64,000 bases of DNA from an uncultured Muribaculaceae bacterium (GTDB lineage: Bacteria > Bacillota_I > Bacilli_A > RF39 > UBA660): contig CAYNFP010000004.1 in NCBI GenBank assembly GCA_964396655.1, forward strand, positions 47,310 to 111,309. Direction: 5' to 3'. The translations under genes were made by a program, and so were the position numbers. This document shows positions 3,350-63,955 of the stretch, one piece after another. Every line of letters begins with the position of its first letter. Positions within the stretch are counted from its first letter, which is position 1. The notes beneath the pieces are model-generated. The model ran no database searches and was not told the origin of the DNA. It saw only the letters and a program-made list of their open reading frames with translations.

Positions 3350-4123
3350 TTATTCTAATGTCCTTTTAGGAATATTAGATACTTCCCATTGCATTGGTCT
3401 TATTTTACGAAGTTTTTTTACAAATTCTATTTCTTTTATAACTTGTGAAGCCATTTCAAAAGGTAATCTATTATATACTTCCTCAGGACTAATATATAAT
3501 ATTTCATCTATGTAAATTACTGGTACTTCTTTTGGACAACAAAAATTAACAATATCCCACTCCCAAGTTTCAAGGTAATCATCATATTCTTCAGCATTAG
3601 CATAAAAATCAAAAACCAACTGTTCGATTTTATCAGCAAAATTATGATTTTTTAATATATAACAACGAATATCATATGCACCCAAACCGTGTGCTTGACT
3701 TCTATTCATGGCTTCAGATATTATAAACTCTTTTTGTTCTTCAGTTAATTCAAGTTCATCATTGAATAAAACATATAATAAAAATGAATAATGTGCAGTT
3801 CCATATAAAACACTTTGTAATCCAATTTTTGCAAGATCTGCGTTGGAACAAATTTTATTCACTAATTTTTGATACAATTCTTTATCTACATTTGTATAAT
3901 CAATCAAAATAGATTCCACTATTGCGTTAGCTTTAAATATATCATCACCAAATTTAGTCTTTACAACTTCCGTTGCAAGTTCTAGAATTTTTTTATCTTT
4001 TCTTATTTCGCCCCATAGTTTTTCAAATTTTTGTTTTTGTTCTTTAGAATATTTTATACCATTATATTGTAATGTGAGTAATGCATCATCAGTCTCTTTT
4101 AATCTTTGAGCTAAATCATTCAT
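3350..4123 (-). CDS. hypothetical protein (257 aa)
   Basis: ORF track entry. AAGGAGG SD. No motif recognised. Confidence 0.65.
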   Translation of the reverse strand: MNDLAQRLKETDDALLTLQYNGIKYSKEQKQKFEKLWGEIRKDKKILELATEVVKTKFGDDIFKANAIVESILIDYTNVDKELYQKLVNKICSNADLAKIGLQSVLYGTAHYSFLLYVLFNDELELTEEQKEFIISEAMNRSQAHGLGAYDIRCYILKNHNFADKIEQLVFDFYANAEEYDDYLETWEWDIVNFCCPKEVPVIYIDEILYISPEEVYNRLPFEMASQVIKEIEFVKKLRKIRPMQWEVSNIPKRTLE

Positions 4124-21496: not shown

Positions 21497-22498
21497 TTAT
21501 TTCTTTTTATATACTAAAACAGCATCTTTAACGCCACGATCACAATATTCTGATCCTTTAGCTTTAGCTAATCTAATCAATTCCCAAATACTCCTAAATT
21601 TTATATATTGAAATTTATTTTTGGGGAAAACTTTTTTTCTTGCGTAAGGTCTATCAATAAAACACCAAGAGATATCATAAAATTTATCATCACAATATTC
21701 ATATAAATACGCTATAACAATAATTCCGTTTTCATTAAGAGATTTTGATAACTCCATTACAATTTCTTTATATTTATATAAAGCTTTCATTTCATCATCT
21801 TCCGTATCTTCACAAAAAGATATATAACTAACAATATTTGATAAATGTATGAAATCATATGATTTCTTTATTTTATCCTTAAGTTCTTTAATATCAGTAT
21901 TTATAAACTTTACTGGGCATTTATCAATTATATCTCTTAATTTATAATAGTTTTCTTTATCAAGATATGGATTTGATAAAATAACTTCTTTTTCAAGACC
22001 AATATCATCAGAAAATAATTCTGATGTTCTAATTTCAAACCCATCAAATTCTAAATATAAAGAATCCCAAAAAAATTTAGTATCAGGATCTAAATACTGA
22101 CTTATTTTCCAATAATTTTTTATATTCATAGCATTAGGGTATTTCTCTTTTTCTTCACCAAATCCATCTTTCAAATAGAAATATTCTATAAATTCTTCGT
22201 ATGATAATGCTTTTATAGCTGCTTTTTTTAAATTAAAATACATATAAGAATATACATTTATATCAAATGCATCTACTGATTTTGCGCCTAAAAGAATAGC
22301 GTTTAATATATGGTCACCACTTCCACATATTGTTAATATTCTTTTATCTTTAAAATCAAAATAATTAAATGTCCCAGTCAAGTTTTCGGTAGTAAATGGA
22401 TACACACTGGAATATTTATAAAATTTTGTTTTATGATTACCCCAAAAAGCAACTCTAAGTAAGGCTTCGGATATTTCTATATAATCTATTTTTCCCAT
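21497..22498 (-). CDS. BtaA/DUF3419-like SAM-dependent enzyme, paralog 1
   Basis: ILTICGSGDHILNAILLGAKSVDAFDIN (SAM-binding GxGxx pattern), LKKAAIKALSYEEF and FWDSLYLEF blocks, as in the DUF3419 family. Confidence 0.5.
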   Translation of the reverse strand: MGKIDYIEISEALLRVAFWGNHKTKFYKYSSVYPFTTENLTGTFNYFDFKDKRILTICGSGDHILNAILLGAKSVDAFDINVYSYMYFNLKKAAIKALSYEEFIEYFYLKDGFGEEKEKYPNAMNIKNYWKISQYLDPDTKFFWDSLYLEFDGFEIRTSELFSDDIGLEKEVILSNPYLDKENYYKLRDIIDKCPVKFINTDIKELKDKIKKSYDFIHLSNIVSYISFCEDTEDDEMKALYKYKEIVMELSKSLNENGIIVIAYLYEYCDDKFYDISWCFIDRPYARKKVFPKNKFQYIKFRSIWELIRLAKAKGSEYCDRGVKDAVLVYKKK

Positions 22499-22500
22499 AA

Positions 22501-23487
22501 TTATAACTCTCTTTTTAATTCTGTATTCTCATAGTATAAAATTGAATTTTTTAAACTTGGATTATAAAAACTTTTTGTTACTTCAAAACACATTATTTTT
22601 AATTCACCTAACTTTTCAAAGAAATATGATAAATATGCTAAATCTAAATCATATTTATTCCAAGCATAATCAATAATAATAACACCATTTTTATTTAACA
22701 TTTTCCCTAATTTTACAATTTCATTTTCCAATGTTTCTTTTTCACTCGTCCAAACTCTTGAATATATATTAGAAAGTCCTATAAAATCATAATCATTTCT
22801 ACAAACTTCACTTAAAGATAAAATATCACAATTAAAAAATCTTACTTCACAATTATCAATTACTTCTCTTAATTTATAATATTCTGTTTCATTAAGATAT
22901 AAATTTGTTTTTAATATAGAATCTTCATCTGTAAAATGAGAAAAAGTTTGCTCAAATAAATCAGATTTTCTAATTTGATAACCAGAAAATTCTAAATATA
23001 ATGAATCCCAAAACTTTTTGATTTCTGGACTTAAATATTTACATATTTTTGAATATAATTTAATTTCAAAAACAGTATTATACTCTATAAAAAAATCTAA
23101 AAATTCTTCATATGTTAAAGCTTTTATAGCGGCTTTCTTTAAAGCAAAATAAAAGTTAGCAAATATACTTATATCAAAACAATCTATTTCTTTAGCACCT
23201 AATAAAATAGCATTTAATACTTGATCTCCACTACCCAATACAGTTAATATTCTTTTATCTTTAAAGTCAAATTTACTGTAATATGCTGCGATATTTTCAT
23301 TTGTGAATGGATAAATTGAAGATAATTCACTAAAACCTGTACAACTGGATTTTTTCCTATCAATTCTATCCTTGTATTCATATAATTTTCCAACTTCAAT
23401 TAATGCTTTTAATATTATGTTTTCTAAATTATCCATAAACCCCTCATTAATGCTGGATATTATATCATAAAAATTTTTACTTGTCAA
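22501..23487 (-). CDS. BtaA/DUF3419-like SAM-dependent enzyme, paralog 2
   Basis: Roughly 50-60% identical by eye to the 21497..22498 product across the same motif blocks. 2-nt intergenic gap. Confidence 0.5.
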   Translation of the reverse strand: MTSKNFYDIISSINEGFMDNLENIILKALIEVGKLYEYKDRIDRKKSSCTGFSELSSIYPFTNENIAAYYSKFDFKDKRILTVLGSGDQVLNAILLGAKEIDCFDISIFANFYFALKKAAIKALTYEEFLDFFIEYNTVFEIKLYSKICKYLSPEIKKFWDSLYLEFSGYQIRKSDLFEQTFSHFTDEDSILKTNLYLNETEYYKLREVIDNCEVRFFNCDILSLSEVCRNDYDFIGLSNIYSRVWTSEKETLENEIVKLGKMLNKNGVIIIDYAWNKYDLDLAYLSYFFEKLGELKIMCFEVTKSFYNPSLKNSILYYENTELKREL

Positions 23488-30785: not shown

Positions 30786-32573
30786 TTATTCCATCACTAT
30801 TTTAAGACGTCTAACACCTGCTGATGAAGACTCTTCTTTTATTATTTTAAATTTACCAAGTTCATTTGTATTTTTAACATGTGGCCCTCCACATATTTCT
30901 TTAGAAACATTAGGAATAGTATAAACAGAAACTAAAGAACCATATTTGTCAGTAAATATTCCTTCTGCGCCACTTTTTTTAGCTTCTTCATAACTCATTT
31001 CTTCCCTTATTACAGGAAGTGAACCATCGATTACTTTATTAACTTTTTCAGTAAGTATTTCTTTTTCTTCATCTGTCATTTTATGGTCTAGTGGAAAATC
31101 TAATCTAAGTCTTTCTGGAGTTATATTGGCTCCTCTTTGTATTACAGAGTCACCAAACATTTCTTTAAGGCAAGCTAATGTAATATGAGCTAGGGTATGA
31201 TATTTAGTGCTCTCATAAGAATCATCTGCAAGACCACCCTTAAATTCACCTACAGAGGCTGTTCTGGATTTTTCTTGATGTTCTTTAAACTTATCATTAA
31301 ATCCATTTACATCTACTTTTATATTATTTTCTTTAGCAAGTTCAATAGTAAATTCTAAGGGAAAACCAAAAGTATCAAATAACTTAAATGCATTGGTGCC
31401 ATCTATTTCATTATTATTAATATTTTTAGTTATTTTATTAAACATTTTAAGTCCAGAATTAAGAGTTTTATTAAATTTTTCTTCTTCTTTTAATAACTCT
31501 TCTATAATAAAATTCTTATTTCTAATTAATTCATTATAATCCATTCCATAATCATTTATAAACACTGTAGCTAAATCTTCTAAAATAGAATGATTTATAT
31601 TCAAACTTTTAATATATCTGATAGCCCTTCTTATTAATCTTCTTAATACATAGCCACTTCCAGTATTTGAAGGAGTTAATTTATGATCATCACCTAAAAT
31701 AAATACACTTGTTCTAACATGATCCATAATAATTCTAAAAGCTTTTTTATTATCTTCATATTTTAATTTACTTAATTCTTCTAATTTTAATATACTATTT
31801 CTAAATATTTCTGTATCATAAACACTCTTTTTACCATTTAAAACCGTAAGAGTTCTTTCAACTCCCATACCAGTATCAACATTTTTATTTTGAAGAGGTG
31901 TATATACTCCATTATTGGAATTAAATTCCATAAAAACATCATTCCAAATTTCTAAATATTTTCCACAACTACATGAAGGATTACAATTATCAGAACATTT
32001 TTCCTTACCTGTATCATAAAACATCTCTGAATCAGGTCCACAAGGACCACTTCCACTACCTAATTCCCACCAATTATGTTCTTTACTTAAAAAGAATATA
32101 TGACTTTCTTCTACTCCACATTCTTTCCATAAATTATAACTTTCTGTGTCTTTTGGAGCATTTTCATTACCAGCAAATACAGTAAAATAAAGTTTATCTT
32201 TAGGTAAACTTAAGTATTCATCACTTGTTAAAAATTCAAATGACCAAGGAATCATACTCTCTTTAAAATAATCCCCAAAAGACCAATTTCCTAACATTTC
32301 AAAAAATGTGCAGTGAGAATCATCTCCAACTCCATCTATATCACTTGTTCTTATACATTTTTGAACATCACAAACTCTCTTTCCTTCTGGATGAGGTGTT
32401 CCAAGTAAATATGGAACTAAAGGATGCATACCTGCAGTTGTAAATAAAACAGTTGGGTCATTTTCTGGTATTAAACTAGCACTCGGTATTATTTTATGTC
32501 CTTTATTTTCAAAAAATTTTAAATACATATCTATTAAGTATCTTCTTGTTAATTCTTTCATAAATTCCTCCAA
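30786..32573 (-). CDS. alaS: alanine--tRNA ligase, short form (catalytic + tRNA-recognition + editing domains, no C-Ala domain)
   Basis: FTTAGM, FFEMLGNWSFGDYFK, editing HxxxH (HTLAHITL) and CGGPHV. The protein ends right after ...AGVRRLKIV at 595 aa. Confidence 0.75.
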   Translation of the reverse strand: MEEFMKELTRRYLIDMYLKFFENKGHKIIPSASLIPENDPTVLFTTAGMHPLVPYLLGTPHPEGKRVCDVQKCIRTSDIDGVGDDSHCTFFEMLGNWSFGDYFKESMIPWSFEFLTSDEYLSLPKDKLYFTVFAGNENAPKDTESYNLWKECGVEESHIFFLSKEHNWWELGSGSGPCGPDSEMFYDTGKEKCSDNCNPSCSCGKYLEIWNDVFMEFNSNNGVYTPLQNKNVDTGMGVERTLTVLNGKKSVYDTEIFRNSILKLEELSKLKYEDNKKAFRIIMDHVRTSVFILGDDHKLTPSNTGSGYVLRRLIRRAIRYIKSLNINHSILEDLATVFINDYGMDYNELIRNKNFIIEELLKEEEKFNKTLNSGLKMFNKITKNINNNEIDGTNAFKLFDTFGFPLEFTIELAKENNIKVDVNGFNDKFKEHQEKSRTASVGEFKGGLADDSYESTKYHTLAHITLACLKEMFGDSVIQRGANITPERLRLDFPLDHKMTDEEKEILTEKVNKVIDGSLPVIREEMSYEEAKKSGAEGIFTDKYGSLVSVYTIPNVSKEICGGPHVKNTNELGKFKIIKEESSSAGVRRLKIVME

Positions 32574-32851
32574 TTAATTTTGTATACTTTATCTATTTTA
32601 AATTTAAATGGTATTTTTACAGCAATCATATCATATTTTTTATCTTTTATAACATTATCATCGACTTCAAAAATATCTAATGAAATTTTAATATAGTATT
32701 TTACTATATCTTGCATATTATTATCATTTAAAAATTTTTTTAAACCTTTTAAAGAAAGATTAATAGCTTTATTATTATAATTTTTATTTTTATTATAAAT
32801 CAACTCTTTTAACTTTGATTCTTCTTTTGTTAATCCATAATATACAATCAT
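32558..32851 (-). CDS. hypothetical protein (97 aa from MIVYYGL...)
   Basis: AGGTGG SD 7 nt before the internal ATG. 16-nt overlap with the alaS start. Confidence 0.5.
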   Translation of the reverse strand: MIVYYGLTKEESKLKELIYNKNKNYNNKAINLSLKGLKKFLNDNNMQDIVKYYIKISLDIFEVDDNVIKDKKYDMIAVKIPFKFKIDKVYKINWRNL

Positions 32852-32896
32852 AACAATCCACCTAATCAAATAAATTATATCATTATTTATTTAATT

Positions 32897-32918
32897 AAAA
32901 AAGAGTTTATTAACTCTT
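32897..32918 (-). terminator. intrinsic terminator after pilin-like gene A
   Basis: aagagtt/aactctt stem, loop tatt, T-rich tail on the minus strand. Confidence 0.55.
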
Positions 32919-32920
32919 TA

Positions 32921-34276
32921 TTATTCTAAAGTTGAAGTATAACCTTCAGGACAAGATGTTTGATTATATAAATATTTTGTTCCTGTATAATCCCATTTAG
33001 TATAGCCAGACTCTGATCTAGCCCAAGCCTCACATCTTCCAGTTCCTACATTTGTTGATTCGCTTAACCTAATATCATCTTCATCTCCACCAGACCAATA
33101 TAGAGTTACCCCATTACAACTATTGTAATCTAAATCTTGTATTCCATCATTACCTGATATCAATAATTCTTTTATATTTGAAACAGTACAAAGCCTTGAC
33201 ATATTTTGAGAAGTTCGTCCCTGAACAACACAGTTAGTATATAAAGTACCGTTATTTACAAGACTAAATGTATAATTATATGTCCATAAGTCTGATTCAC
33301 AGCCCACAGCAGAGCAATTAGTATTACCATCCGTTTGACAAGCCGTAATTGCAGATGACTCAGATGTATAACTACATGTAGTACTTGTATTTACTTTTGA
33401 ACATGTGTAAGTTATTAATTTTGTTATAGCATAATATGTTACATTTGAAGAAATAGCCAGACTTTGAGATGCATCATACTGCTTAGTAGTTGCAGATAAG
33501 TTTGTATTCCATCCTATAACTGAATATCCAGAATTTGGAGTTATTGAAGGAAGAGTTATTAAGCAAGAAGTTTGAGTATTATACATATTACAATTTAATG
33601 ATGTAGCCGATATTGAAGCTGCAGTATTTTTATCAAATGTTGCGACTATATTCTTACTAGTTATGGCATAATATGTTACATTATTATCATTTGCTCCAAT
33701 TTCTATATTAGAACTAACATCATAAGTTGAAGTAGTTGAAGAAGGTGATTTACCCCATCCAATTATGGTATGTCCCTCTCTTGTAATTGTTGGAATTGTT
33801 ACTGTACATGTACTTCCATTTAATGTCTTACAACCTACCCCTTCTGCACTTATATTTGTAGCACCATTTGCATCAAAGTTTATTGCCACTTCAATTTCCA
33901 TTGGTCCTTTAAAAGCTTGAATGACTGAGCTTTTTAATTTTATTGTTATAGCATCATCATTCATTATTGAATTATCTCTTGGATCTAACACACAGCCAAA
34001 AGCTCTTTCACAAGTTTCATCTTCATCTAAATATCCTGTTGCCAATAAAGTTTCCACACTTATTTGTATAGTATCAGCTTCTCCAAAAGCATCTTTATTA
34101 TTTTTTCCATATAATTCTGCAGCTCTTAAAATTGAGTTCATTTTTGAATCATATGCTCTTTCTTTAATTGATTTACTTATTAAAATAGCTGTAGGTATAG
34201 CAACAGATAATATTATTCCTATTGTAACTATTACTAATAATATTTCAGTTATTGTAAAGCCTTTTTTATTTTTCAT
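32921..34276 (-). CDS. prepilin-type N-terminal cleavage/methylation domain protein with two Listeria-Bacteroides-type (Flg_new-like) repeats and a Cys-rich C-terminal domain (paralog A, 451 aa)
   Basis: MKNKKG|FTITE leader with hydrophobic helix. Two repeats of FDxN....C......C.(I/V)T.P.IT..G(Y/H).(I/V)(I/L)GW......T..YD.......(V/T)YYA(I/V). Confidence 0.8.
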   Translation of the reverse strand: MKNKKGFTITEILLVIVTIGIILSVAIPTAILISKSIKERAYDSKMNSILRAAELYGKNNKDAFGEADTIQISVETLLATGYLDEDETCERAFGCVLDPRDNSIMNDDAITIKLKSSVIQAFKGPMEIEVAINFDANGATNISAEGVGCKTLNGSTCTVTIPTITREGHTIIGWGKSPSSTTSTYDVSSNIEIGANDNNVTYYAITSKNIVATFDKNTAASISATSLNCNMYNTQTSCLITLPSITPNSGYSVIGWNTNLSATTKQYDASQSLAISSNVTYYAITKLITYTCSKVNTSTTCSYTSESSAITACQTDGNTNCSAVGCESDLWTYNYTFSLVNNGTLYTNCVVQGRTSQNMSRLCTVSNIKELLISGNDGIQDLDYNSCNGVTLYWSGGDEDDIRLSESTNVGTGRCEAWARSESGYTKWDYTGTKYLYNQTSCPEGYTSTLE

Positions 34277-34313
34277 ATTAACACCTATGTTAATAATATC
34301 ATAATTTTTATAC

Positions 34314-34345
34314 TAAAAAAAGTAAACAACTTCTAGTTGTTTACT
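34314..34345 (-). terminator. intrinsic terminator after pilin-like gene B
   Basis: 10-bp stem agtaaacaac/gttgtttact, 5-nt loop, T7 tail on the minus strand. Confidence 0.7.
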
Positions 34346-34352
34346 TTTATAA

Positions 34353-35633
34353 TTATTGTTCTGTCCATCCAGCAGGACAATAAGCTTGATTATATAAATA
34401 ACATGTACTTCCTGATAATGTTCCGGTAGAACAACTATAAGTTGTTGTTGCGGTAGCAGCAGTATAAGTTGAACAAGTCGAAGAACTTACAACAGTACCA
34501 TTACATACATAATCACTAGTACAAGCATATCTGCAATAATAATAATTGTTTGCAGTATCACAACCATGACTATCTTCACATAATAATGCGTAGCTTCCTC
34601 CATGTGTTCCTGTACAGTAAACTCTGTCATTATCATCTCTATCCCAACATTTCCAATAGGTATGTTCTTCAACGTCAGCCTCTGTAGTTGTTATACATTG
34701 ATTACCTGATAATGTTCCAACACTACAAGAATATGTTGTAGTTGATGTTGCAACTTTAGTACATGTAACTGGTGTTTTTTGTACTGCATAATAAGTAATA
34801 TTTGATGTTATTGGAATTAATTCTGATTGGTCATATTGCTTAGTTGTTGCAGCTGAATTTGTATTCCATCCAACAGCAACATAACCAGAAGCGGCTGTTA
34901 TAGTAGGAGAAGTTATTGTACACCCTGTTTGAGTATTATATATTGTACAATTAGCTGATGTAGCACTAATTGAACTTGCATTATTTTTATTAAATGTTGC
35001 CACTAAATTTTTACTAGTTACAGCATAATATGTTGAATCGTTATCAGTTGAACCAATTTCTATATTAGAACTCACATCATAACTTGAAGTTGTTGCGGAT
35101 GATGACTTACTCCATCCTAATATTGTATATCCATCTCTTGTAATTGTGGGAGCTGTAACTATACATGTACTTCCATTTAATGTGTTACATCCCACCGCTT
35201 CTGCTCCTATAGAAGTTGCACCATTTGCATTAAAATTTAAAGATAATGTAACTTCCATCGGACCTACAAAAGCTTGAACAACTAGTTTTTTTATTTTTAT
35301 TGTTATAGGATCATCATTCATTATTGAATCATCTCTTGGATCAAGCACACAACCAAAAGTTCTTTCACAAGCCTCATCTTCATCTACATATCCATTTGCT
35401 AATAGAGTCTCTACACTTATTTGTATTACTTCTGATTCTCCAAAAACGTCTTTATTGTTCTTTCCATATAGTTCTGCAGCCACTATAATTGAATCCATTT
35501 TTGAGTCATATGATCTTTCTTTTATTGATTTGCTTATTAAAATAGCTGTAGGTATAGCTATGGATAATATTATACCTATTATAACTATTACTAATAATAT
35601 TTCAGTTAATGTAAAGCCTTTTTTATTTTTCAT
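34353..35633 (-). CDS. prepilin-type N-terminal cleavage/methylation domain protein with Flg_new-like repeats and a Cys-rich C-terminal domain (paralog B, 426 aa)
   Basis: MKNKKG|FTLTE leader. About 75% identical by eye to paralog A over the first ~285 aa, then divergent. Both end in YLYNQxxCPxG(Y/W)T. Confidence 0.8.
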   Translation of the reverse strand: MKNKKGFTLTEILLVIVIIGIILSIAIPTAILISKSIKERSYDSKMDSIIVAAELYGKNNKDVFGESEVIQISVETLLANGYVDEDEACERTFGCVLDPRDDSIMNDDPITIKIKKLVVQAFVGPMEVTLSLNFNANGATSIGAEAVGCNTLNGSTCIVTAPTITRDGYTILGWSKSSSATTSSYDVSSNIEIGSTDNDSTYYAVTSKNLVATFNKNNASSISATSANCTIYNTQTGCTITSPTITAASGYVAVGWNTNSAATTKQYDQSELIPITSNITYYAVQKTPVTCTKVATSTTTYSCSVGTLSGNQCITTTEADVEEHTYWKCWDRDDNDRVYCTGTHGGSYALLCEDSHGCDTANNYYYCRYACTSDYVCNGTVVSSSTCSTYTAATATTTYSCSTGTLSGSTCYLYNQAYCPAGWTEQ

Positions 35634-35673
35634 AAGAATCTCCTATAATAATAATACCATATTTTTTATAATA

Positions 35674-35707
35674 AAAAAAGTAAACACTCTTTTTAGGTTG
35701 TTTACTT
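35674..35707 (-). terminator. possible terminator after cdaR (imperfect copy of the 34314..34345 hairpin)
   Basis: agtaaaca/tgtttact stem with a 12-nt loop and an A-run on the plus strand. Confidence 0.4.
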
Positions 35708-35715
35708 TTATTAAT

Positions 35716-37074
35716 TTATTGAATGATTATTGTTACTTTAGATGTTTTTGAAGTATATGATAATTTTAAATCATTTCCAGTTACTTTTACTGGTACTTCC
35801 CATTCTCCGGCTGTTAAATCTGTTAAGTCAACATAAGCTTTAATATCTTCTGTTGTAAGTGAATTTAACAATGTAGAAGTACCCTTTACTACAACAGTTA
35901 CTGAAGTACTTGTTTTACCATAAGCTTTTAAACCATCACCCAAGTTACGAAGTTCTATACTTACATCTTGAAATTCCTTAGAAGTTTCTTTTTCCATTTG
36001 AACTTTAACAGTTATATTCTTTTCACTCATAGATCTTACCCCAAGAGGTTTTTCTATAGAAGTTTGGAATGTTTTATCATCGTTTAAACCATTAACATCA
36101 ATTTGAACTTCAATACTCTCTATTCCAGAAAGAACTGTTTCATCAGCATATATAGTTACTTTTGTAACACTTGATGTTATAGACGCGATAGCGGCACCAC
36201 TTGCAACTTCTCCTACAGGGACTATTTTAATTGGAACAGTCTTACTTGGAGAATTTATTACTACAGTAGCAGTTAATGTCTCTGGTAATATTTCTATATT
36301 CTTAATTTCTTTACCTTTTTCATCATAAGCAATTAATTTTACATTATCTAATGTATAAGTTCCTGCCGCATTAGCATTTAATGCATTAACATCTACAATT
36401 GCTTTTACTGAAGCTACTTTTTCTAACTTCTCAGCATAACTTTTAATTATTACTTCATCTCTTCCTAAAGTTACATTACTTACTACTAATTTTTCATCTA
36501 GTTTATCTGTATTTAATATATCAGTTGTTACTGTTCTAACCTCTCTAACAATTGGATAAATAACAACCGTTACTGATGAAGGATCCAATTTATATTGTAA
36601 TGTGTTTATAGGATTATTATATTTTAATTTAACTTTATGAGTTCCAGTACTAAGTCCAGATAAATCCAAAGTTACTTTATGCTCACCTAATTGTTGAGCT
36701 AAATATAAGTCACTTTTTCTACCCATTAATACTATATCAACTGTCGAAGGGATTCCCTCAACAATATAAGATTCTTCATTATATTCAACTTCTACTTTTT
36801 GATTAGAAATAACTGTGGCTTCTGTTTCTACCAAAGTCACTACCTTTCTATCTATTACGAAAAATGTTACGAATGCTAATATTAATGAAATATATACTAT
36901 CATGTTGGGTTTATTTAACATTCTATCTATTAAACTAGGTCCATTTGGATTTTTATTCATTAATTTATATATTAATTTACTAATAGGAGTAATTAATATA
37001 ACATCTATTACTTTATATATACCAAGACCAATTTTTTTAAAGAAGGAACCTGTCTTAGATATGATTTTCTTCAT
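35716..37074 (-). CDS. cdaR: YbbR-domain protein, regulator of diadenylate cyclase
   Basis: N-terminal TM segment and repeated YbbR-like beta domains. Start placed at MKKIISK, 9 nt after the AAGGAGG SD inside the cdaA 3' end. Confidence 0.8.
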   Translation of the reverse strand: MKKIISKTGSFFKKIGLGIYKVIDVILITPISKLIYKLMNKNPNGPSLIDRMLNKPNMIVYISLILAFVTFFVIDRKVVTLVETEATVISNQKVEVEYNEESYIVEGIPSTVDIVLMGRKSDLYLAQQLGEHKVTLDLSGLSTGTHKVKLKYNNPINTLQYKLDPSSVTVVIYPIVREVRTVTTDILNTDKLDEKLVVSNVTLGRDEVIIKSYAEKLEKVASVKAIVDVNALNANAAGTYTLDNVKLIAYDEKGKEIKNIEILPETLTATVVINSPSKTVPIKIVPVGEVASGAAIASITSSVTKVTIYADETVLSGIESIEVQIDVNGLNDDKTFQTSIEKPLGVRSMSEKNITVKVQMEKETSKEFQDVSIELRNLGDGLKAYGKTSTSVTVVVKGTSTLLNSLTTEDIKAYVDLTDLTAGEWEVPVKVTGNDLKLSYTSKTSKVTIIIQ

Positions 37075-37891
37075 TAGAATCATCCTCCTTCTTAACTTCT
37101 TCATCAGCCTCATAGAATACTTCTTTCTTAGGTTGAAGTTCTTCCATTAATAACATTTTAGCATCATCAACTGATAAATTATAATTTAACTCACTTTTTA
37201 CTGCAATACTAATTCTACCAGTTTCTTCAGATACAACTATTGCTATTGCATCTGTTATTTCCGAAATACCTAAAGCAGCTCTATGTCTAGTTCCGAGTCT
37301 TTTAGAAACTCCAGGATTCATACTTGTTGGAAATATTACACTAGCACAAGTTATCTTTTCGCCTTGAATAATTACAGCTCCATCATGTAAAGGATTATTT
37401 GGGAAAAATATTGAAACTAATAACTCACTTGATATATCTGCATATATTTTATTTGCGGGTTCTATATATTGATGCAAACTATAATCTCTTTCTATTGCGA
37501 TTAAAGCACCTATTCTGTTTTTCTTTAAATAATCTAAAGCTTGAGTAATTTCATAAACTAATTTTTCTCTTTGATCTACTGTTAATACTTTATGTCTTCC
37601 TAATAGTTTACTTCTACCAATACTTTCTAATACAGTTCTAATTTCGGGTTGAAATATAACTATTAAGGCTATTGGAGCCCATTCAATTACATATTCTAGT
37701 ATTATACCTATAGTATTTAAATTTAATAATTGGCTTACTACTTTTATCAAAATTAATACAAGAACACCCTTAAAAATTAATATTAATTTTACGTTATTCC
37801 TTAAATATTTTAATATAAAATAAAATAACATCCATACAAAAGCTATATCTATTATTTTTGTTATTACATTTAAAATGGCATTGTAATCCAT
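37055..37891 (-). CDS. cdaA: diadenylate cyclase (c-di-AMP synthase), membrane-bound
   Basis: Three N-terminal TM segments, then a DAC domain with DGAVII and GTRHRAALG. Confidence 0.9.
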   Translation of the reverse strand: MDYNAILNVITKIIDIAFVWMLFYFILKYLRNNVKLILIFKGVLVLILIKVVSQLLNLNTIGIILEYVIEWAPIALIVIFQPEIRTVLESIGRSKLLGRHKVLTVDQREKLVYEITQALDYLKKNRIGALIAIERDYSLHQYIEPANKIYADISSELLVSIFFPNNPLHDGAVIIQGEKITCASVIFPTSMNPGVSKRLGTRHRAALGISEITDAIAIVVSEETGRISIAVKSELNYNLSVDDAKMLLMEELQPKKEVFYEADEEVKKEDDSNEENHI

Positions 37892-41286: not shown

Positions 41287-41637
41287 GGGGCTGAATTGAT
41301 TCGACAATTTATTAGACTTTAAAATGCAAGTAGTAGACATACTATAAATGTTATCCGAAAATAAACGGAGAAAAAAATAATTTTGCACCTGCTTTTGCCT
41401 AATTTAGCATAGCAAGTGGTTCCACCTTACCTTTGTTTGCGAGGTAAGCCATGGGACTCATAAAAGCAAACTATATTGTTTATTTGTTTAGGATAAATAA
41501 TGAAAATTACTAAACTTAGATAATTAATGGAAAGATAGTAATCCATATTAGTTATTGAAATATAAAACTATCTAAACTTGTAGATATTTTTTAGAATAAT
41601 ACTTTGGACACGAGTTCGATACTCGTCAGCTCCACCA
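41287..41637 (+). ncRNA. ssrA: tmRNA (SsrA)
   Basis: 5' GGGGCTGAATTGATTCGACA and 3' GGACACGAGTTCGATACTCGTCAGCTCCACCA form a tRNA-Ala-like acceptor with G3:U70. The tag reading frame at 41367-41402 reads GGA GAA AAA AAT AAT TTT GCA CCT GCT TTT GCC TAA. Confidence 0.92.
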
Positions 41638-41648
41638 AATGATAATTC

Positions 41649-41673
41649 AACTTCTTTTAATAGAAGTTTTTTT
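41649..41673 (+). terminator. intrinsic terminator after ssrA
   Basis: aacttct/agaagtt stem, loop tttaat, T5+ tail. Confidence 0.7.
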
Positions 41674-41703
41674 ATGCTAAAATTAAATAAAGGAAATAAT
41701 ACT

Positions 41704-42181
41704 ATGGAAGTTAATAAAGAATATATAAATGAGTATAAAAAAATTATGAAAACAACCAATATACAAAAAGGATATCAAGAATTAATTAAGTTTTTTCGCT
41801 ATTTAAAAATATATTTGGAAAAAGAATTAAAAGAATATACTTTTGCTGGTAATATAGTTGAAAACAGTATGGATTATTCATATTTTCAATTTACTAATAA
41901 AAAATTAAAATCTAATGGATTGAAAATTGTAATTGCTTTTGTACATAAAGTATTTTAATTATGAAATTTGGTTATCTGGATTTAATAGAGATATTCAAAA
42001 TAAATACTTTAAAATATTAAAAGAAAAAAGTCAAAAGTATACTTTGACTAATAATCCTAATAAAACAGATTATATACTAAAAACAGATATAAATTCCAAT
42101 CATGATTATGATAATTTGCATGAGTTATTAAAGCAAATGAAAGTTAGTATTACTGAGTTTATAAGTGATTTAACAATATGA
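41704..42181 (+). pseudogene. hypothetical gene split by a +1 frameshift at a T4 run (41953-41956)
   Basis: ORFs 41674..41958 and 41933..42181 overlap by 26 nt. The second has no ATG or SD. Removing one T joins ...LKIVIAFVHKVF to NYEIWLSGFNRDIQNKYF... Confidence 0.5.
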
Positions 42182-42186
42182 ATATA

Positions 42187-42214
42187 TTGACTTAAAATAA
42201 AAGTAGTATATAAT
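42187..42214 (+). promoter_or_regulatory. near-consensus sigma-A promoter
   Basis: TTGACT, 16 nt, TATAAT, about 30 nt upstream of the 42247 ATG. Confidence 0.5.
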
Positions 42215-42246
42215 AAATGTTAAATTTATAAAGGAGAAAATTTAAT

Positions 42247-42897
42247 ATGTCAAAAGAAAATGAAAGACCCTATAATGATGAACAAACTATTGCAATTAAT
42301 GATGAAGCAAAATTAATTATAAGATCTTTTTGGTGTTACAGTGATCTTTGTGCTCATGGATTTATAAAATATGATAATCAAGAAGAAATTAAGTTTGGAT
42401 TTATTGATACGGCTTCACCAAGTGATTTTTTTGTTCCATCTTATTTTAAAACAACAAATAATTATGTTGCTATTTGCCACCCTACTCATGATGGTAGTTT
42501 TGAAGTAGAAGAGATATTTGATGTTCAAAAGAAGCGCAAATTAGAAATCGGACTAACAGAAAGAATACAAGCTATTAAAAATTTTAAAATAGAAGTTTTT
42601 AAAGCAAGTTGGGATAAATTAGATAATAGAGATAAAGAGATAATAAAACAAAACTATGAAAATCCAGACAATGATGAAACTGATTGTTTCCGTTTAATGA
42701 TTAAAAGTATAGCAAAAGCTATGAATACCATTTCAGATTTAGAATGTGATTCAAAAGAGAGAGAAGATAATATTCATGAATTCTTACATTCATTATTAAG
42801 TCTTGGATTTTTAAAAAACGAAGCAAAACAATTATTAATTGATTGTGTAATTAATGGTAACGAAAAAAACAATTTAATTTTAAAGCATCTTATTTAA
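42247..42897 (+). CDS. hypothetical protein (216 aa)
   Basis: AAAGGAGAAA SD. No motif recognised. Confidence 0.65.
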   Translation: MSKENERPYNDEQTIAINDEAKLIIRSFWCYSDLCAHGFIKYDNQEEIKFGFIDTASPSDFFVPSYFKTTNNYVAICHPTHDGSFEVEEIFDVQKKRKLEIGLTERIQAIKNFKIEVFKASWDKLDNRDKEIIKQNYENPDNDETDCFRLMIKSIAKAMNTISDLECDSKEREDNIHEFLHSLLSLGFLKNEAKQLLIDCVINGNEKNNLILKHLI

Positions 42898-42907
42898 AGA
42901 TGTTTTT

Positions 42908-43348
42908 TTAATCTAAGGATAAAGTTAATTTAGATATTGTAAATTCATTTGAAACTTCTCTTAAATATCTGATAAATGCTTCTGTATACCTAAATGAAAA
43001 TTTATTTTCAGTAGATGAAATTTCTATATCAGTTTTAATACATAGTTCTAAATCTTCACAAAAAATATTGCTTTTAATTAGATTTTCAATTGAGTATATT
43101 AATTCATTAATATACTTTGTGTATATTAACAATTCTTTTTCAAGATCTTTACCTAATCCGATTTCTATTTTTTTGTATATTAAAGAAACTAGATATTTCA
43201 TAGTTCTTACCATATAATTAGATATTCCTTCTTTGCTTTTTAAATACCAATTATTATCTATACCTAGAAGCACTCTAAATTCTTCTAATCCAAAATTATT
43301 CTTGATTTCTTCTATTATATCTTGTTTTTGTTTTTTTATATTTTCCAT
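42908..43348 (-). CDS. hypothetical protein (146 aa)
   Basis: AAAGGAGAAA SD. No motif recognised. Confidence 0.6.
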   Translation of the reverse strand: MENIKKQKQDIIEEIKNNFGLEEFRVLLGIDNNWYLKSKEGISNYMVRTMKYLVSLIYKKIEIGLGKDLEKELLIYTKYINELIYSIENLIKSNIFCEDLELCIKTDIEISSTENKFSFRYTEAFIRYLREVSNEFTISKLTLSLD

Positions 43349-43423
43349 TAAATTTCTCCTTTTAAATAGTATTTATTATATTATAATATTTAACATTGTC
43401 AATAATGACCAAATATACAAATA

Positions 43424-43451
43424 TTGACAAAATTATATTTTTTGATATAAT
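43424..43451 (+). promoter_or_regulatory. consensus sigma-A promoter
   Basis: TTGACA, 16 nt, TATAAT, with TG two bases upstream of the -10. Confidence 0.55.
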
Positions 43452-43479
43452 AATAATCAAAATTTATTGGAGGTATTGT

Positions 43480-43749
43480 ATGTCATTAAGTAGAAAAAGT
43501 GTATGGGATTTTGATTTAAAAGAGCCTAGTGATGAAGATATTAGACAAATAGAGTTAGAAAAAGAATATGATTATGATGGTATACCAGAATTAGGATTAG
43601 AAAGAGAATTCGGTTGTATAGATACATCAAAAACAGTTTTAGATTCATTAGAAGTACACTCAAGAGATGAAAACGAAGAAGATCTTGGATTTGCAGATTC
43701 AGTTATAGGAAATTTTACTGAAAAAGCAATAAGAAGAATTTTAAGATAA
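43480..43749 (+). CDS. small acidic hypothetical protein (89 aa, MSLSRKSVWDFDLKEPSDED...)
   Basis: Start moved to the ATG preceded by a GGAGG SD; the ORF-track start sits inside the promoter. Confidence 0.6.
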   Translation: MSLSRKSVWDFDLKEPSDEDIRQIELEKEYDYDGIPELGLEREFGCIDTSKTVLDSLEVHSRDENEEDLGFADSVIGNFTEKAIRRILR

Positions 43750-43750
43750 T

Positions 43751-43776
43751 AAAAGAACTCAAAAATGAGTTCTTTT
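43751..43776. terminator. bidirectional intrinsic terminator between convergent genes
   Basis: 11-bp stem aaaagaactca/tgagttctttt, 4-nt loop, A/T runs on both sides. Confidence 0.7.
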
Positions 43777-43779
43777 ATT

Positions 43780-44907
43780 TTATTCTAAAGTTTCATTGAT
43801 TAAATTATATATTTTTAATAAAGAGTTATTGCTATCTATATTATTGTAACTATCTTGATATTTTTTAAATTTATTTGAGCCTTGCATAAACTTTGTTATA
43901 TTAGATTTAAAGGTAAACATAAAGTTAATAGAAAATCCGTGATTATTTTTAGATACAAATTTTGCATTATATCTTTCTACTGCCATACTTGGTAAAAGCA
44001 TCATTACTTTTTTCATTTCTATGCATTCTGTTACAGTTGCTCCACCAGGTTTTGTTATAATTAAATTTGCAATTTTCATTAATTCTAATACTTCTGTTAT
44101 AAAGCCATAAACATGAACATGTTTTTTATGTAATTTTTTTTGTAAATCTAAAGCTCTTTCTTTTAATTTTTTATCTTTTCCAGCCACAAATATAATTTCT
44201 GCTGAAGTATTCATTTTTAAAAGTTCTTTATAATACTTAAAGTAAGATTGTTTACCTTCTCCACCTCCACCAAAAAATAATATAACTTTTCTGGTTGGAT
44301 TAATATTATATTTTTTATATATTTTTTTATCAGAAGGAAGTTTATTTAATTGAAATATATTAAATGGTAACCCATATGGATAAATCTTTTTAGAAAAGCA
44401 TTTTTTCTTTATCATTTCTTCTTTTACTATATCATTTGCTACTATAAACATTTCATTTTTATCTTTACATGAAAGCCAAAAATCATGAATTTTATAATCA
44501 GTTACTATAGTCATTAACTTGCTTTCTATTTTATGACTTTTATTTAATTTTGCTATAATATTATTTGCATAAAAATGAGTTGCTATTGTTAAATCTGGAT
44601 TTATATCACATATTACTTTTTCTAACTTTTTATTTGAAATAATGTTTTTAGAATATATATTATTTAATAATCTAAATATTTTATTATCTGTTAATTTATA
44701 AACACTTGTTATTAAATAATCAAATCTATGACTAAAAAGATAAATATATATTTTTGCTGAAAGTTTTGTAAGTCTATCAACATAATCTAATATATCTATT
44801 GCGGTTACTTCATATTTATTTTCTATTTCAATATAGTTTTTTATATAATTGGCAATTGATTTATGTCCATTTCCATAAGAAGCATATATTATTAAAATTT
44901 TTTTCAT
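43780..44907 (-). CDS. diacylglycerol glycosyltransferase (MGDG synthase/UgtP-like, GT28 family)
   Basis: N-terminal KILIIYASYGNGHKSIA. C-terminal ITKPGGATVTE typical of the family. Confidence 0.7.
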   Translation of the reverse strand: MKKILIIYASYGNGHKSIANYIKNYIEIENKYEVTAIDILDYVDRLTKLSAKIYIYLFSHRFDYLITSVYKLTDNKIFRLLNNIYSKNIISNKKLEKVICDINPDLTIATHFYANNIIAKLNKSHKIESKLMTIVTDYKIHDFWLSCKDKNEMFIVANDIVKEEMIKKKCFSKKIYPYGLPFNIFQLNKLPSDKKIYKKYNINPTRKVILFFGGGGEGKQSYFKYYKELLKMNTSAEIIFVAGKDKKLKERALDLQKKLHKKHVHVYGFITEVLELMKIANLIITKPGGATVTECIEMKKVMMLLPSMAVERYNAKFVSKNNHGFSINFMFTFKSNITKFMQGSNKFKKYQDSYNNIDSNNSLLKIYNLINETLE

Positions 44908-60974: not shown

Positions 60975-61568
60975 TTATTCACATGTAGTGCATACACTAG
61001 GTGCTACTTTTTTCATCATTGTAGTTAATTCTGTTTTTAAACTAGTTATTTTTTCATTAGTCCAATATTCTTTAGGGGTTAAATTTTCATCTGTTATCAC
61101 TGATGTTTCATTGTTATGACCTAATATAACTCCATCTTTAACTATTGTAACATCAGGAACAAATATTCTATGATTCCCATCTTCATCAAATAATAAATTA
61201 TCTCCTAATAATGACACGATTTTCTTGTATTCTTTTGTATTATTTTCTCTTATTTTTTTTATATTTAAATAATTTATTTTATCTACTCCAACTTCTTTTG
61301 CAACTTCATTTAAGTAAGAGGCATATGCTTGACACCAAGGACATTCTGGGAATCCCAAATATACAACTCCAGTTCCGTTTTCTAATATATCTATTACTTC
61401 TTTAGGATTTTTATATATAAACAAATTATCTTCATTTACTTTTGTATATTCAGAACTAAATCTTTCTGCATCTGTTTTATTATAATAAAGTAAATATACT
61501 CCTAAAGCTCCTAATAAAACTACAGCAGATATTATAATTAATACTATCCTTTTTTTCATCTTTATCAC
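60975..61568 (-). CDS. membrane-anchored thioredoxin-fold protein (CPWC active site)
   Basis: Signal anchor plus VYLGFPECPWCQ. Confidence 0.7.
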   Translation of the reverse strand: MIKMKKRIVLIIISAVVLLGALGVYLLYYNKTDAERFSSEYTKVNEDNLFIYKNPKEVIDILENGTGVVYLGFPECPWCQAYASYLNEVAKEVGVDKINYLNIKKIRENNTKEYKKIVSLLGDNLLFDEDGNHRIFVPDVTIVKDGVILGHNNETSVITDENLTPKEYWTNEKITSLKTELTTMMKKVAPSVCTTCE

Positions 61569-61693: not shown

Positions 61694-62119
61694 ATGAATA
61701 CTAATACATGTCCAGAAAATAGAGAATGCAGTGAATGTCTTGCCGAAATTCTTCGAGTAATACATATTCTTCAAGAAAACGCTTGTCCTGAGAATTGCTT
61801 AAATGCATGTGATAGACCAGCACTTGGTGGAGGAGCCAACTGTGTAATATGTAACACAAGACCTATAATGATATATACTTGCTGTGGAAATGGTGTTCCT
61901 TGGGCTATGCCGATAACAAGAACAGCAGCAGGTACAACAAGCACTGTGTTTAGAGTAGAAAAACTTGATGATTGCTGCTGTACATTTAGAGTTTTAGCAC
62001 CTAATCCAGATGAAACAAGTTTATATCCTTATGTATCAACAGATTCTATATTTACAATGGATATAAGTTGCATGTGTGCTCTTAGATGCTTAAATGACAC
62101 TTTTGTAGAGTGTTTATAA
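61694..62119 (+). CDS. CotY/CotZ-family Cys-rich spore coat/crust protein
   Basis: FRVEKLDDCCCTFRVL and DISCMCALRCLND parallel B. subtilis CotZ FRVERVHGSCATLSLL / DLDCFCAINCLNP. Confidence 0.75.
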   Translation: MNTNTCPENRECSECLAEILRVIHILQENACPENCLNACDRPALGGGANCVICNTRPIMIYTCCGNGVPWAMPITRTAAGTTSTVFRVEKLDDCCCTFRVLAPNPDETSLYPYVSTDSIFTMDISCMCALRCLNDTFVECL

Positions 62120-62588: not shown

Positions 62589-63797
62589 ATGTTGAATTTT
62601 GAAGGGTTAATTGTTAATATTATATTTATTTTATTTCCCAGTTTACTGCATACTATATATACTGCTAATAAACAAATATTAAAGGAATCAGAAAATTATA
62701 TTGTACTTGATTTCACTATAACTTTTTCTCTTTTATTAATATTAATTTATAATAAATTTTTTAATACTAATTATATTTTATATTATTTTTTAATATTATT
62801 AATGTTATCTTTTATAAAAAAAAGAGGAATAACTTCATTAATAATATCTATTATTTCTTTAGAATACTTAGCTTTTAATTACAATTTTAATAATATTTTA
62901 TTGATTATATTATTTGCTGGAAATATTATAATATATTTTTTAATCAGAAAAAAAGAGAAATATCCTATTATATTATTTTATATATTTTCAATAATCATAT
63001 CTTTTATTATTTATTATTCAAGTAAAGATTTTAATTTATTATATTTTATTATAAATTCAATAATACTCTATTTAATGCTTTTGGTTTTAATTGTTTGGTT
63101 AAAAAAGTCAAAGGAAATATTAGAATTGCAAAATGTTTTAAAAGAATATAAAAAACAAAAGCAATTAAAAGAATCTTTATTTAAAATAACTCATGAAATA
63201 AAAAATCCTTTAGCGGTTGTAAAAGGATATTTAAGTATGCTTAATATTGATAACAAAGAAAAAGCTTTAAAATATATTGGAATTATTAAAAGCGAAGTCG
63301 AAAGAACCGTAAATTTATTAGAAGACTTTATGCAGTTTAGTAAAATTCAATTAAAATGTGAAAAATTTAATTATAATATTTTATTAGAAGAAATCAAAAA
63401 TTTAGTAATACCTCTTTTTGAATCAAAAGGTATTAAATACGAATTTAAAAGTGAAGAAAAGATATTTATTAAAGGCGATTTTTTAAGACTTAAACAAGTT
63501 ATAGTTAATATAATAAAAAATTCTGTTGAGGCTTGTGATAAAAATGGTGTTGTTTATATTACTTGCTTTATAGATCAGAAATTTTTAAATATAATTATAA
63601 AAGATAATGGTGTCGGTATGAATAAAGAAACTTTAAATAAAATACTTACTCCTTTTTATACAACTAAGGAAAAAGGAACGGGTTTAGGAGTATGCTTGTC
63701 CAGAGAGATAATAGAAGCACATAAGGGAAAACTGATATATACTTCTTCTTTGGGTAAAGGTACAACGGCCAAAATTGTGCTTCCAATACTTAATTAG
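62589..63797 (+). CDS. sensor histidine kinase with a polytopic membrane sensor domain (orphan; no response regulator adjacent)
   Basis: About 6 TM segments, HisKA H-box ITHEIKNPL, N-box NIIKNSVEA, G-boxes DNGVGM and GTGLGV. Confidence 0.85.
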   Translation: MLNFEGLIVNIIFILFPSLLHTIYTANKQILKESENYIVLDFTITFSLLLILIYNKFFNTNYILYYFLILLMLSFIKKRGITSLIISIISLEYLAFNYNFNNILLIILFAGNIIIYFLIRKKEKYPIILFYIFSIIISFIIYYSSKDFNLLYFIINSIILYLMLLVLIVWLKKSKEILELQNVLKEYKKQKQLKESLFKITHEIKNPLAVVKGYLSMLNIDNKEKALKYIGIIKSEVERTVNLLEDFMQFSKIQLKCEKFNYNILLEEIKNLVIPLFESKGIKYEFKSEEKIFIKGDFLRLKQVIVNIIKNSVEACDKNGVVYITCFIDQKFLNIIIKDNGVGMNKETLNKILTPFYTTKEKGTGLGVCLSREIIEAHKGKLIYTSSLGKGTTAKIVLPILN

Positions 63798-63955
63798 TAA
63801 TAGTAAGGATATGTTGGATAATAAGGATAATATGGTCTGGGTCTATATGGATTAAATGCAGCATAAGCAGCTCCACCAGTTAAAGCCCCTAATAAAAATG
63901 GTGCCCCTATTCCTACAAATCTTTCATTAGTATAATTAAAATTATTAAATTTCAT
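63794..63955 (-). CDS. small Tyr/Pro-rich protein (53 aa, MKFNNFNYTNERFVGIGAPFLLGALTGGAAYAAFNPYRPRPYYPYYPTYPYYY)
   Basis: Hand-found ORF with a strong GGAGGAG SD. Its stop overlaps the convergent kinase stop. Confidence 0.5.
   Translation of the reverse strand: MKFNNFNYTNERFVGIGAPFLLGALTGGAAYAAFNPYRPRPYYPYYPTYPYYY

Follow-up and report, generated by a model that had tools for sequence, protein, structure and literature searches.

What are two long pilin-like genes doing in the middle of a housekeeping gene cluster, with no pilus machinery beside them? The question is raised by a stretch of 64,000 nucleotides of contig CAYNFP010000004.1 (positions 47,310 to 111,309; assembly GCA_964396655.1), the whole of which is referred to here as the window. 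Two tandem genes on its minus strand encode modular prepilins of 426 aa (gene B, 34353-35633, the upstream copy) and 451 aa (gene A, 32921-34276, the downstream copy), each ending in a cysteine-rich head. An earlier interpretation, made from the DNA letters and open reading frames (ORFs) alone and called the sequence-only reading below, had described a diverging pair with a conserved stalk and a variable tip, and had proposed a surface adhesin displayed on a type IV filament. The class of protein, and the architecture of a pilin module followed by two internalin B-like (InlB) B-repeats, are in fact already known. What is new is the orphan heads and the mosaic history of the genes.

Both proteins are modular pilins

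Both proteins start with MKNKKG|FT(I/L)TE, a canonical prepilin leader with predicted cleavage after Gly6 (leader at 35616-35633 in B and at 34259-34276 in A, both on the minus strand). It shows the pattern of a class III signal peptide, in which a short basic stretch closes with Gly and is followed by a hydrophobic +1 residue and a Glu at +5. The residues by which type IVa-like pilins are recognised, F1, E5, G14 and P22 in mature numbering, occur in both proteins. Every relative examined has F1 and E5, and every close member has G14 and P22 too. The Pfam family N_methyl (PF07963) scores 21.8 bits for A and 30.7 for B, both above the cutoff of 21.2, and TIGR02532 scores 30.1 bits for B and 16.3 for A, the latter borderline, being exactly at the cutoff of 16.3. 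No other N-terminus of prepilin type is encoded in the window. The lengths, positions and leader of the two ORFs are thus as the sequence-only reading had them.

AlphaFold2, using alignments of 8 sequences for A and 5 for B, predicts for both proteins a 51-residue helix (residues 9-59) followed by strands at 69-73, 109-115 and 118-123. The pilin fold, an α1 helix of about 50 residues plus a β-sheet, is therefore present in prediction in both, and the pilin module (aa 7-125) extends to about residue 125 (35259-35615 in B and 33902-34258 in A, minus strand). A sequence search of the PDB matched only pilins, and solely through the N-terminal α1 helix. The model of A has a mean confidence (predicted local distance difference test, pLDDT) of 83.5, and that of B 67.7, its stalk being confident and its head below 50.

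The pilin module is followed by two β-rich repeat domains at residues 126-285 (34779-35258 in B and 33422-33901 in A, minus strand). They match Flg_new (PF09479; in InterPro IPR013378, the Internalin B-like B-repeat) in two stretches per protein, with 34.9 bits for A and 50.6 for B against a cutoff of 27. The profile searches that the sequence-only reading had called for therefore place both proteins above the curated thresholds for N_methyl and Flg_new alike, and the cysteine pair that it had seen in each repeat is there (149/157 and 229/238). These two pairs, and a third in the pilin module (89/95), are conserved in both proteins. Cysteine accounts for 3.5% of A and 4.7% of B, compared with 1.3% of the window proteome, an enrichment of about threefold.

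By definition, a modular pilin combines a pilin module with a functional module grafted onto it (Raynaud et al., 2021, PMC8179133). The window proteins consist of N_methyl and two Flg_new domains, plus a head of about 140-166 aa which is folded in the model of A. They fit this definition, and hence belong to a known protein class.

Relatives and their chromosomal slots

A word-indexed homology search found 23 proteins, 13 of them close relatives (45-69% identical, 298-494 aa), and all but one of these 13 have the same Pfam architecture. Relatives and their loci are identified below by P and L numbers. Among 185,579 species-representative genomes, a full-length relative is found in one metagenome-assembled genome only. 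This genome (GCA_964492595.1, contig CAZBKY010000002.1, loci L002/L004) is titled 'uncultured Muribaculaceae bacterium'. Its contig runs collinear with the window and encodes neighbouring proteins that are 75-93% identical, and the taxonomic label of the genome is probably wrong. In public records the relatives come from gut samples and bear the labels uncultured Bacilli, Bacillota or Clostridia.

The pair lies between cdaA-cdaR and an alanyl-tRNA synthetase (AlaRS) gene, as first noticed from the sequence, and the DAC domain of cdaA, the ybbR/cdaR gene and alaS bear this out. Upstream, at the left border of the slot (35716-37891, minus strand), are cdaA (37055-37891) and ybbR/cdaR (35716-37113), identified by Pfam CdaA_N, DAC and YbbR matches to their homologues and 75-93% identical across genomes. 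On the right (30786-32869, minus strand) are a small, conserved 103-aa ORF without a Pfam match (32558-32869) and alaS (30786-32573). The order cdaA-ybbR-pilin-(small ORF)-alaS, with one or two pilin genes, holds in every locus with enough flanking DNA, and the pilin ORF is unbroken in at least 10 loci at this slot. The comparison across strains that had been suggested thus yields a copy number of one or two, with heads that vary by type.

The module family extends beyond this slot and beyond this size. Metagenome contigs carry larger single-copy members (488-878 aa), some of which have Ephrin_rec_like cysteine-rich repeats or a glycine-rich domain. The same cysteine-pair variant of the B-repeat occurs in non-pilin relatives (P0019-P0021). 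A second slot, between engB and der, holds shorter proteins with the pilin module only: those from the genome scan have about 206-212 aa, and P0016-P0018 have 242-250 aa. Occupants of this slot lie at 10001-10636 in L005, 5174-5926 in L027 and 481-3273 in L029, with proteins of 211-250 aa. In L029, from a related organism, the engB-der slot contains a 588-aa modular pilin, a 179-aa ORF and a stand-alone 135-aa pilin, the last being a candidate structural pilin of the putative filament.

A third slot, between nusG and rplK, is occupied by P0022 (L023, 10001-11746), a 581-aa N_methyl protein with a cysteine-rich end (…GYYYCPNGGTLSGSTCNY). It adjoins an HTH_38 gene, and is another orphan modular pilin within a highly conserved gene cluster.

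Mosaic evolution of stalk and head

Proteins A and B are 74% identical over residues 1-288 and 24% identical from residue 289 to the end, in good agreement with the estimate by eye (about 75% over the first 285 or so residues, and nearly unrelated thereafter). However, the tails are not the two sides of a diverging pair, as they had been described, but separate head families, each conserved across genomes. Identity matrices cluster the stalks by genome and the heads by type. Stalks are 73-80% identical between paralogues of one locus, and 45-66% identical between genomes. The head of window A is 56-64% identical to the heads of P0006-P0012, which makes it as conserved as its stalk, but only about 30% identical to the head of window B. 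For the window B head the nearest counterparts are in P0013 and P0004, and the fragment P0024 matches it at 78% identity.

The relatives contain mosaics. P0007 and P0008 are 90-100% identical to about residue 300 and 27-53% identical beyond it, while P0006 and P0008 have the reverse pattern, and the breakpoints near residue 300 are sharp. Such breakpoints indicate recombinational reshuffling at the stalk-head junction. The synonymous divergence (dS) of the stalks is in keeping with this: it is 0.48 between window A and B and 0.40 within the L002 pair, compared with 0.79-1.13 for housekeeping genes between the same genomes (Nei-Gojobori estimates throughout, approximate in view of the extreme base composition and of dS near saturation between genomes). 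The stalks of one genome therefore share an ancestor later than the split of the genomes. Given that the head types are common to several genomes, this requires stalk homogenisation (by gene conversion or re-duplication), head exchange, or both. Taken together, the comparisons show several unrelated head types that have evidently been exchanged between strains in a fixed chromosomal slot, and stalks that have evidently been homogenised within each genome.

The stalk has a dN/dS of about 0.35, compared with 0.06-0.11 for neighbouring genes, and is 39-66% identical across genomes where CdaA, YbbR and AlaRS are 75-93% identical. The pilin gene is the fastest-evolving gene in its neighbourhood, several times faster than its neighbours. 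Against this background Gly-1, F1, E5, G14 and P22 are strictly conserved, whereas the remaining stalk is only 39-66% identical. Gene-wide positive selection is unsupported, dN/dS being about 0.26-0.35 and hence below 1. The pattern of conserved stalk and variable tip in the sequence-only reading thus stands, but its origin has to be sought in recombination or gene conversion rather than in diversifying selection over the whole gene.

A near-identical pair of single-copy genes, L024 (2825-4288) and L031, is a further mosaic, with a dS of 0.25 for the pilin module, 0.013 for the repeats and 0.085 for the head, from which it follows that recombination reaches the 5' part of the gene as well.

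The cysteine-rich heads

The type-B head (34356-34778, minus strand) has 14 cysteines and is conserved in P0004, P0013 and P0024. It contains an internal repeat of the form YSCS.GTLSG..C, found as YSCSVGTLSGNQC at residue 301 and YSCSTGTLSGSTC at residue 399, and terminates in YLYNQAYCPAGWT. The type-A head (32924-33421, minus strand) has about 166 residues, among them 10 cysteines, and ends in YLYNQTSCPEGYTSTLE. In an alignment of seven type-A heads, 65 columns are invariant, nine of which are cysteines. The two proteins share the end motif YLYNQ..CP.G[YW]T; this motif, the repeat in B and the cysteine-rich character of both C-terminal domains had all been picked out by eye. The C-termini (...CPEGYTSTLE and ...CPAGWTEQ) have neither an LPXTG motif nor a C-terminal transmembrane segment, and a sortase-assembled pilin or adhesin was rejected.

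Structure prediction beyond residue 290 or so, which the sequence-only reading had recommended, succeeds for one head and not for the other. Head A is predicted to have a mixed β fold of long β-hairpins plus two helices, with pLDDT mostly 72-90 and a single 10-residue block at 59. Head B has a pLDDT of about 30 and was left out of the fold comparison. Neither head has a Pfam match at E≤1 or a sequence-level match in the PDB. Foldseek with the whole of model A against the PDB gave nothing convincing (best E 4e-4, to Gram-positive surface proteins, with a template modelling (TM) score below 0.2), so that in these searches neither tail matches a characterised family. Galectin-like Foldseek matches appear only at E >1, and a lectin fold is not claimed for head A. 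Against viral structures, model A matches phage tail proteins with E down to 1.7e-12; these proteins contain InlB B-repeats, and the matches arise because that repeat is shared with the stalk, the head not being involved.

In the word-indexed homology search, tail A alone has no match, and tail B alone matches one fragment, P0024. An exhaustive HMMER profile search with head A against 1.84 billion cluster representatives finds five proteins at E≤1e-3. Three of them reach E≤1e-10, namely the family representative, P0026 (a fragment with B-repeats) and P0025 (705 aa). The heads are therefore new, having no Pfam match, no sequence-level PDB match and no convincing structural match, and head A is extremely rare. 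Both are probably disulfide-bonded.

Elsewhere in the window (60975-61568, minus strand) is a 197-aa protein in which an N-terminal membrane anchor is combined with a CPWC motif (LGFPECPWCQAY). Weak matches link it to PedC/BrcD-type disulfide isomerases of bacteriocin maturation (E 4.6e-4, far below the cutoff), and a homologue of identical length has a precomputed 'PedC-like (weak)' call. The protein is a candidate extracytoplasmic thiol-disulfide oxidoreductase, and could serve the cysteine-rich heads.

Transcription signals

Each pilin gene is bracketed by terminator-like hairpins, whose z-scores were computed against shuffles. A hairpin with a U-run follows ybbR and lies upstream of gene B (35671-35711; -11.1 kcal/mol, z -4.55), a duplicated one with a 14-bp stem lies between B and A (34315-34348; -13.7 kcal/mol, z -4.62), and a third follows gene A (32897-32919; -6.4 kcal/mol, z -3.17), all on the minus strand. 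The hairpins before B and before A are each followed by a TGnTATTAT box and a ribosome-binding site. For gene B (35640-35659, minus strand) these are the extended -10-like box TGGTATTAT at 35651-35659, which is conserved in related loci, and AGGAG at 35640-35644. For gene A (34282-34301, minus strand) they are the duplicated box TGATATTAT at 34293-34301 and AGGTG at 34282-34286, within upstream DNA that is 77-88% identical to that of B. In L002, L003, L024 and L026, too, a similar terminator and a TGnTAnnAT box precede the first pilin gene.

The DNA of B and A is 77-95% identical from position -77 through the 5' end of the gene, and falls to the random level by about nucleotide 900. On this alignment, the duplicated unit is evidently the terminator, the promoter-like box and the stalk together. 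A generic sigma-70 scan shows no enrichment (45 promoter-like sites, compared with 41.4 ± 6.7 in shuffles), and the promoter assignment is made because the TGnTAnnAT box is conserved, the sigma-70 scan not being its basis. Since hairpins bracket each gene, and each has its own extended -10-like box, the pilin genes are probably monocistronic units of their own, outside the cdaA-cdaR transcript. Membership of the cdaA-cdaR operon was considered as the principal interpretation, and was rejected on account of the terminator-like hairpin and the separate -10-like box.

Function and alternative explanations

How, then, might two pilins work at such a site? We favour, with a probability of roughly 0.6, the explanation that they are minor modular pilins presented at the tip of a filament, the machinery for which is encoded elsewhere, and that their heads are ligand-binding and exchangeable. 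By analogy with the family, a prepilin peptidase encoded elsewhere would cleave after Gly6, and the subunit would then dock through its α1 helix into a type IV filament that unlinked machinery assembles. Its bulk would make a low copy number and a place at the tip of the filament most probable. The two B-repeats would act as a spacer holding the probably disulfide-bonded head away from the filament, and the head, again as in the family, would bind a ligand. The sequence-only proposal of a surface adhesin on a type IV filament is upheld as far as architecture goes: the proteins are built like modular type IV pilins, whose established model is one of display at the tip and adhesion (PMC8179133).

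Several observations weigh against this explanation. In agreement with the sequence-only reading, phmmer searches of the 64-kb window found no PilB/GspE-type ATPase and no PilC/GspF-type platform protein, with positive controls recovered in other loci, and no GspO-type prepilin peptidase, the peptidase screen being without a positive control. Pfam scans of 30 otherwise unassigned window ORFs likewise detected no ATPase, platform protein or peptidase. None of the three is present in about 8-10 kb past each window end. Nor was machinery found in any lineage locus examined, by genome and metagenome contig scans and seven context look-ups (about 240 kb plus the lineage loci of the metagenome scan, a small part of any genome). 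In P0025, head A follows a plain membrane anchor at the N-terminus that lacks the G|FTxxE cleavage site, which means that head A does not strictly need a pilin carrier. Moreover, the AlphaFold2 alignments are shallow, and head B is without a confident model.

Some of these observations would be natural if the proteins were displayed without any filament, the prepilin N-terminus being a mere membrane anchor or a cleavable export/anchor signal, and the proteins single stalked adhesins that never polymerise. Besides the lack of linked machinery in the lineage loci examined and the simple transmembrane anchor of P0025, this explanation has in its favour that the genes are orphans among housekeeping genes in three slots (ybbR-alaS, engB-der and nusG-rplK), and that InlB B-repeats are typical of ordinary Firmicutes cell-surface adhesins. 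It nevertheless has difficulty in accounting for the strict conservation of Gly-1, F1, E5, G14 and P22 within a fast-evolving stalk, and for the small stand-alone pilin of the same module family in a related organism. A further point against it is that pilin genes unlinked to their machinery are common. We regard filament-independent display, the main rival, as unlikely, though deserving of some weight. Its more radical form would have the lineage lack type IV filament machinery altogether, the prepilin N-terminus having been re-purposed as a stand-alone display base, and the locus being a hot spot that swaps unknown disulfide-rich heads by recombination at the stalk-head junction. This is a speculative suggestion to which we attach a low probability; if it were true, the locus would serve to vary a receptor on the cell surface, much as phages swap their receptor-binding proteins.

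Another reading is that the proteins are unusually large ComG-type minor pilins of a competence (Com) pseudopilus, with heads that capture DNA or a partner cell. The best named NCBIfam matches are indeed ComGC, ComGE and ComGD, through the N-terminal 40-85 residues, and the organism is a monoderm Bacillota (as its CotZ indicates), a group in which Com pili are widespread (PMC12153270). The ComGC scores (NF040999) are, however, only 25.7 and 31.9 bits, far under the cutoff of 75, and ComGC was rejected as an assignment, with no comGA/comGB-like genes nearby. The window genes lie outside any comG operon, unlike the ComGC-like matches in Thermoactinomycetaceae, which sit directly after ATPase and platform genes, and their size and cysteine-rich heads are unlike those of known ComG pilins. 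A role in competence is thus very improbable. We give still less credence to the idea that the genes are decaying or derived from a mobile element, for example captured phage receptor-binding or tail-fibre modules without a cellular function. The viral structural neighbours, the mosaic head content and the slight rise in GC content (0.29-0.30, compared with about 0.21-0.28 elsewhere) could all be read in this way. However, the viral matches are explained by the widespread B-repeat, and the GC shift fits a composition rich in Thr, Ser, Gly and Cys. The ORFs are intact, dN/dS is below 1, and the promoter and terminator elements are conserved. There are no phage or mobile genes nearby and the housekeeping synteny is conserved, on which grounds a prophage origin was rejected.

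If the minor modular pilins proposed here do carry adhesins as their heads, they would be candidate determinants of attachment to the host, to mucus or between bacteria in a poorly known gut group. The locus provides a clear case of modular pilins from an uncultured, very low-GC, spore-forming lineage of gut Bacillota. It gives direct sequence evidence for separate histories of stalk and head, through head exchange and stalk homogenisation, and it presents a stable chromosomal slot with no linked machinery found, in which the pilin gene evolves several times faster than the genes around it. It opens no new category, and has no bearing on a long-standing question.

Other features of the window

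The window is very AT-rich throughout (GC content about 0.21-0.30), and nearly all of its genes are on the minus strand. The 103-aa ORF between gene A and alaS overlaps the start of alaS. Its counterparts in L001 and L026 have 96-97 aa, and L002 has instead two unknown ORFs (311 and 269 aa). The AlaRS of this lineage has just 589-595 aa (window 30786-32573, minus strand; L002, L024 and L026), the only domains called being tRNA-synt_2c and tRNA_SAD, and the C-terminal domain appears to be absent. A typical bacterial AlaRS has about 870 aa and includes the C-terminal domain. In Bacillus and Listeria, the cdaA-cdaR operon is completed by glmM. Here cdaA-ybbR (35634-37891, minus strand) is succeeded by the terminator-like hairpin and the pilin genes, and glmM was not recognised among the window ORFs examined, no search having been aimed at it.

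A homologue of the spore coat protein CotZ is encoded at 61694-62119 on the plus strand, and a 53-aa ORF rich in Tyr and Pro (…PYRPRPYYPYYPTYPYYY) at 63794-63955 on the minus strand. Related loci contain SpoVIF and Coat_F genes. Judging from these four features, the lineage is a spore former.

Two tandem paralogous ORFs of the DUF3419 family (333 and 328 aa) are found at 21497-23487 on the minus strand. At 1793-3203 (minus strand) a LigD primase-polymerase ORF (1793-2659) adjoins a LigD_N (phosphoesterase) ORF, the annotation being taken from identical genes in L060; next to these is a 257-aa ORF (3350-4123) with no Pfam match. At about 41600-43800 the otherwise uniform minus-strand orientation of the region is interrupted by a short block with plus-strand genes and a reversed GC skew (+0.13 at 42001-44000). 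This block contains small ORFs without Pfam matches, and is a possible insertion.

Comparison with known systems

The closest known parallels are the modular pilins PilB and PilC of Streptococcus sanguinis, with a von Willebrand factor A (vWA) and a lectin module respectively. They resemble the window proteins in having a class III signal peptide, a small pilin module and C-terminal grafted modules (PMC8179133; Shahin et al., 2023, PMC9934059). In size, too, mature PilB is similar, with 454 residues (PMC8179133). Adhesion through the vWA module of PilB has been shown, and its location at the tip argued (PMC8179133), presentation at the pilus tip for adhesion being the accepted model for these proteins. 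The window pilins differ in having two InlB B-repeats and an orphan cysteine-rich head in place of a vWA or lectin module. They are also tandem and far from any machinery, with separate histories of stalk and head. The S. sanguinis pilB and pilC genes lie inside the pil locus.

The 1,219 modular pilins surveyed by Raynaud et al. fall into 264 architectures (PMC8179133). One of these, IPR012902-IPR013378-IPR013378 (9 proteins, Dataset S1, which also contains variants with one, three and five repeats), is exactly the Pfam-visible architecture of both window proteins. The entry consists of counts only, and no current domain model recognises the heads. The minor type IVb pilin CofB of enterotoxigenic Escherichia coli has a pilin module, a β-repeat domain and a terminal β-sandwich, and is located at the tip (PMC8179133), which is the same logic of base, spacer and head. 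It differs in being a trimer of a diderm type IVb system and an adaptor for a secreted protein. No sequence or fold similarity of CofB to the window heads was detected in the PDB sequence search or in the Foldseek search with model A.

With the major pilins and pseudopilins of the ComGC and GspG type, the window proteins have in common the N-terminal methylation motif and the α1 helix. They have some 300 extra residues and no operon context, and miss the equivalog cutoffs widely; GspG (TIGR01710), which was also rejected as an assignment, scores 21.7 and 26.4 bits against a cutoff of 88.85, through the N-terminal helix only. Firmicutes adhesins and phage tail proteins with InlB B-repeats (Flg_new) use the same repeat as a stalk or spacer, but have Sec signal peptides, cell-wall anchors or virion attachment, and no prepilin N-terminus. 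Finally, in the pilE/pilS system of Neisseria the N-terminus is constant and the C-terminus is reshuffled by homologous recombination. The window locus is similar in combining a constant part for assembly with a recombining exposed part. It is unlike pilE/pilS in that no silent cassettes are seen, in that the variation observed is between strains and paralogues, and in that whole head domains are swapped rather than mini-cassettes.

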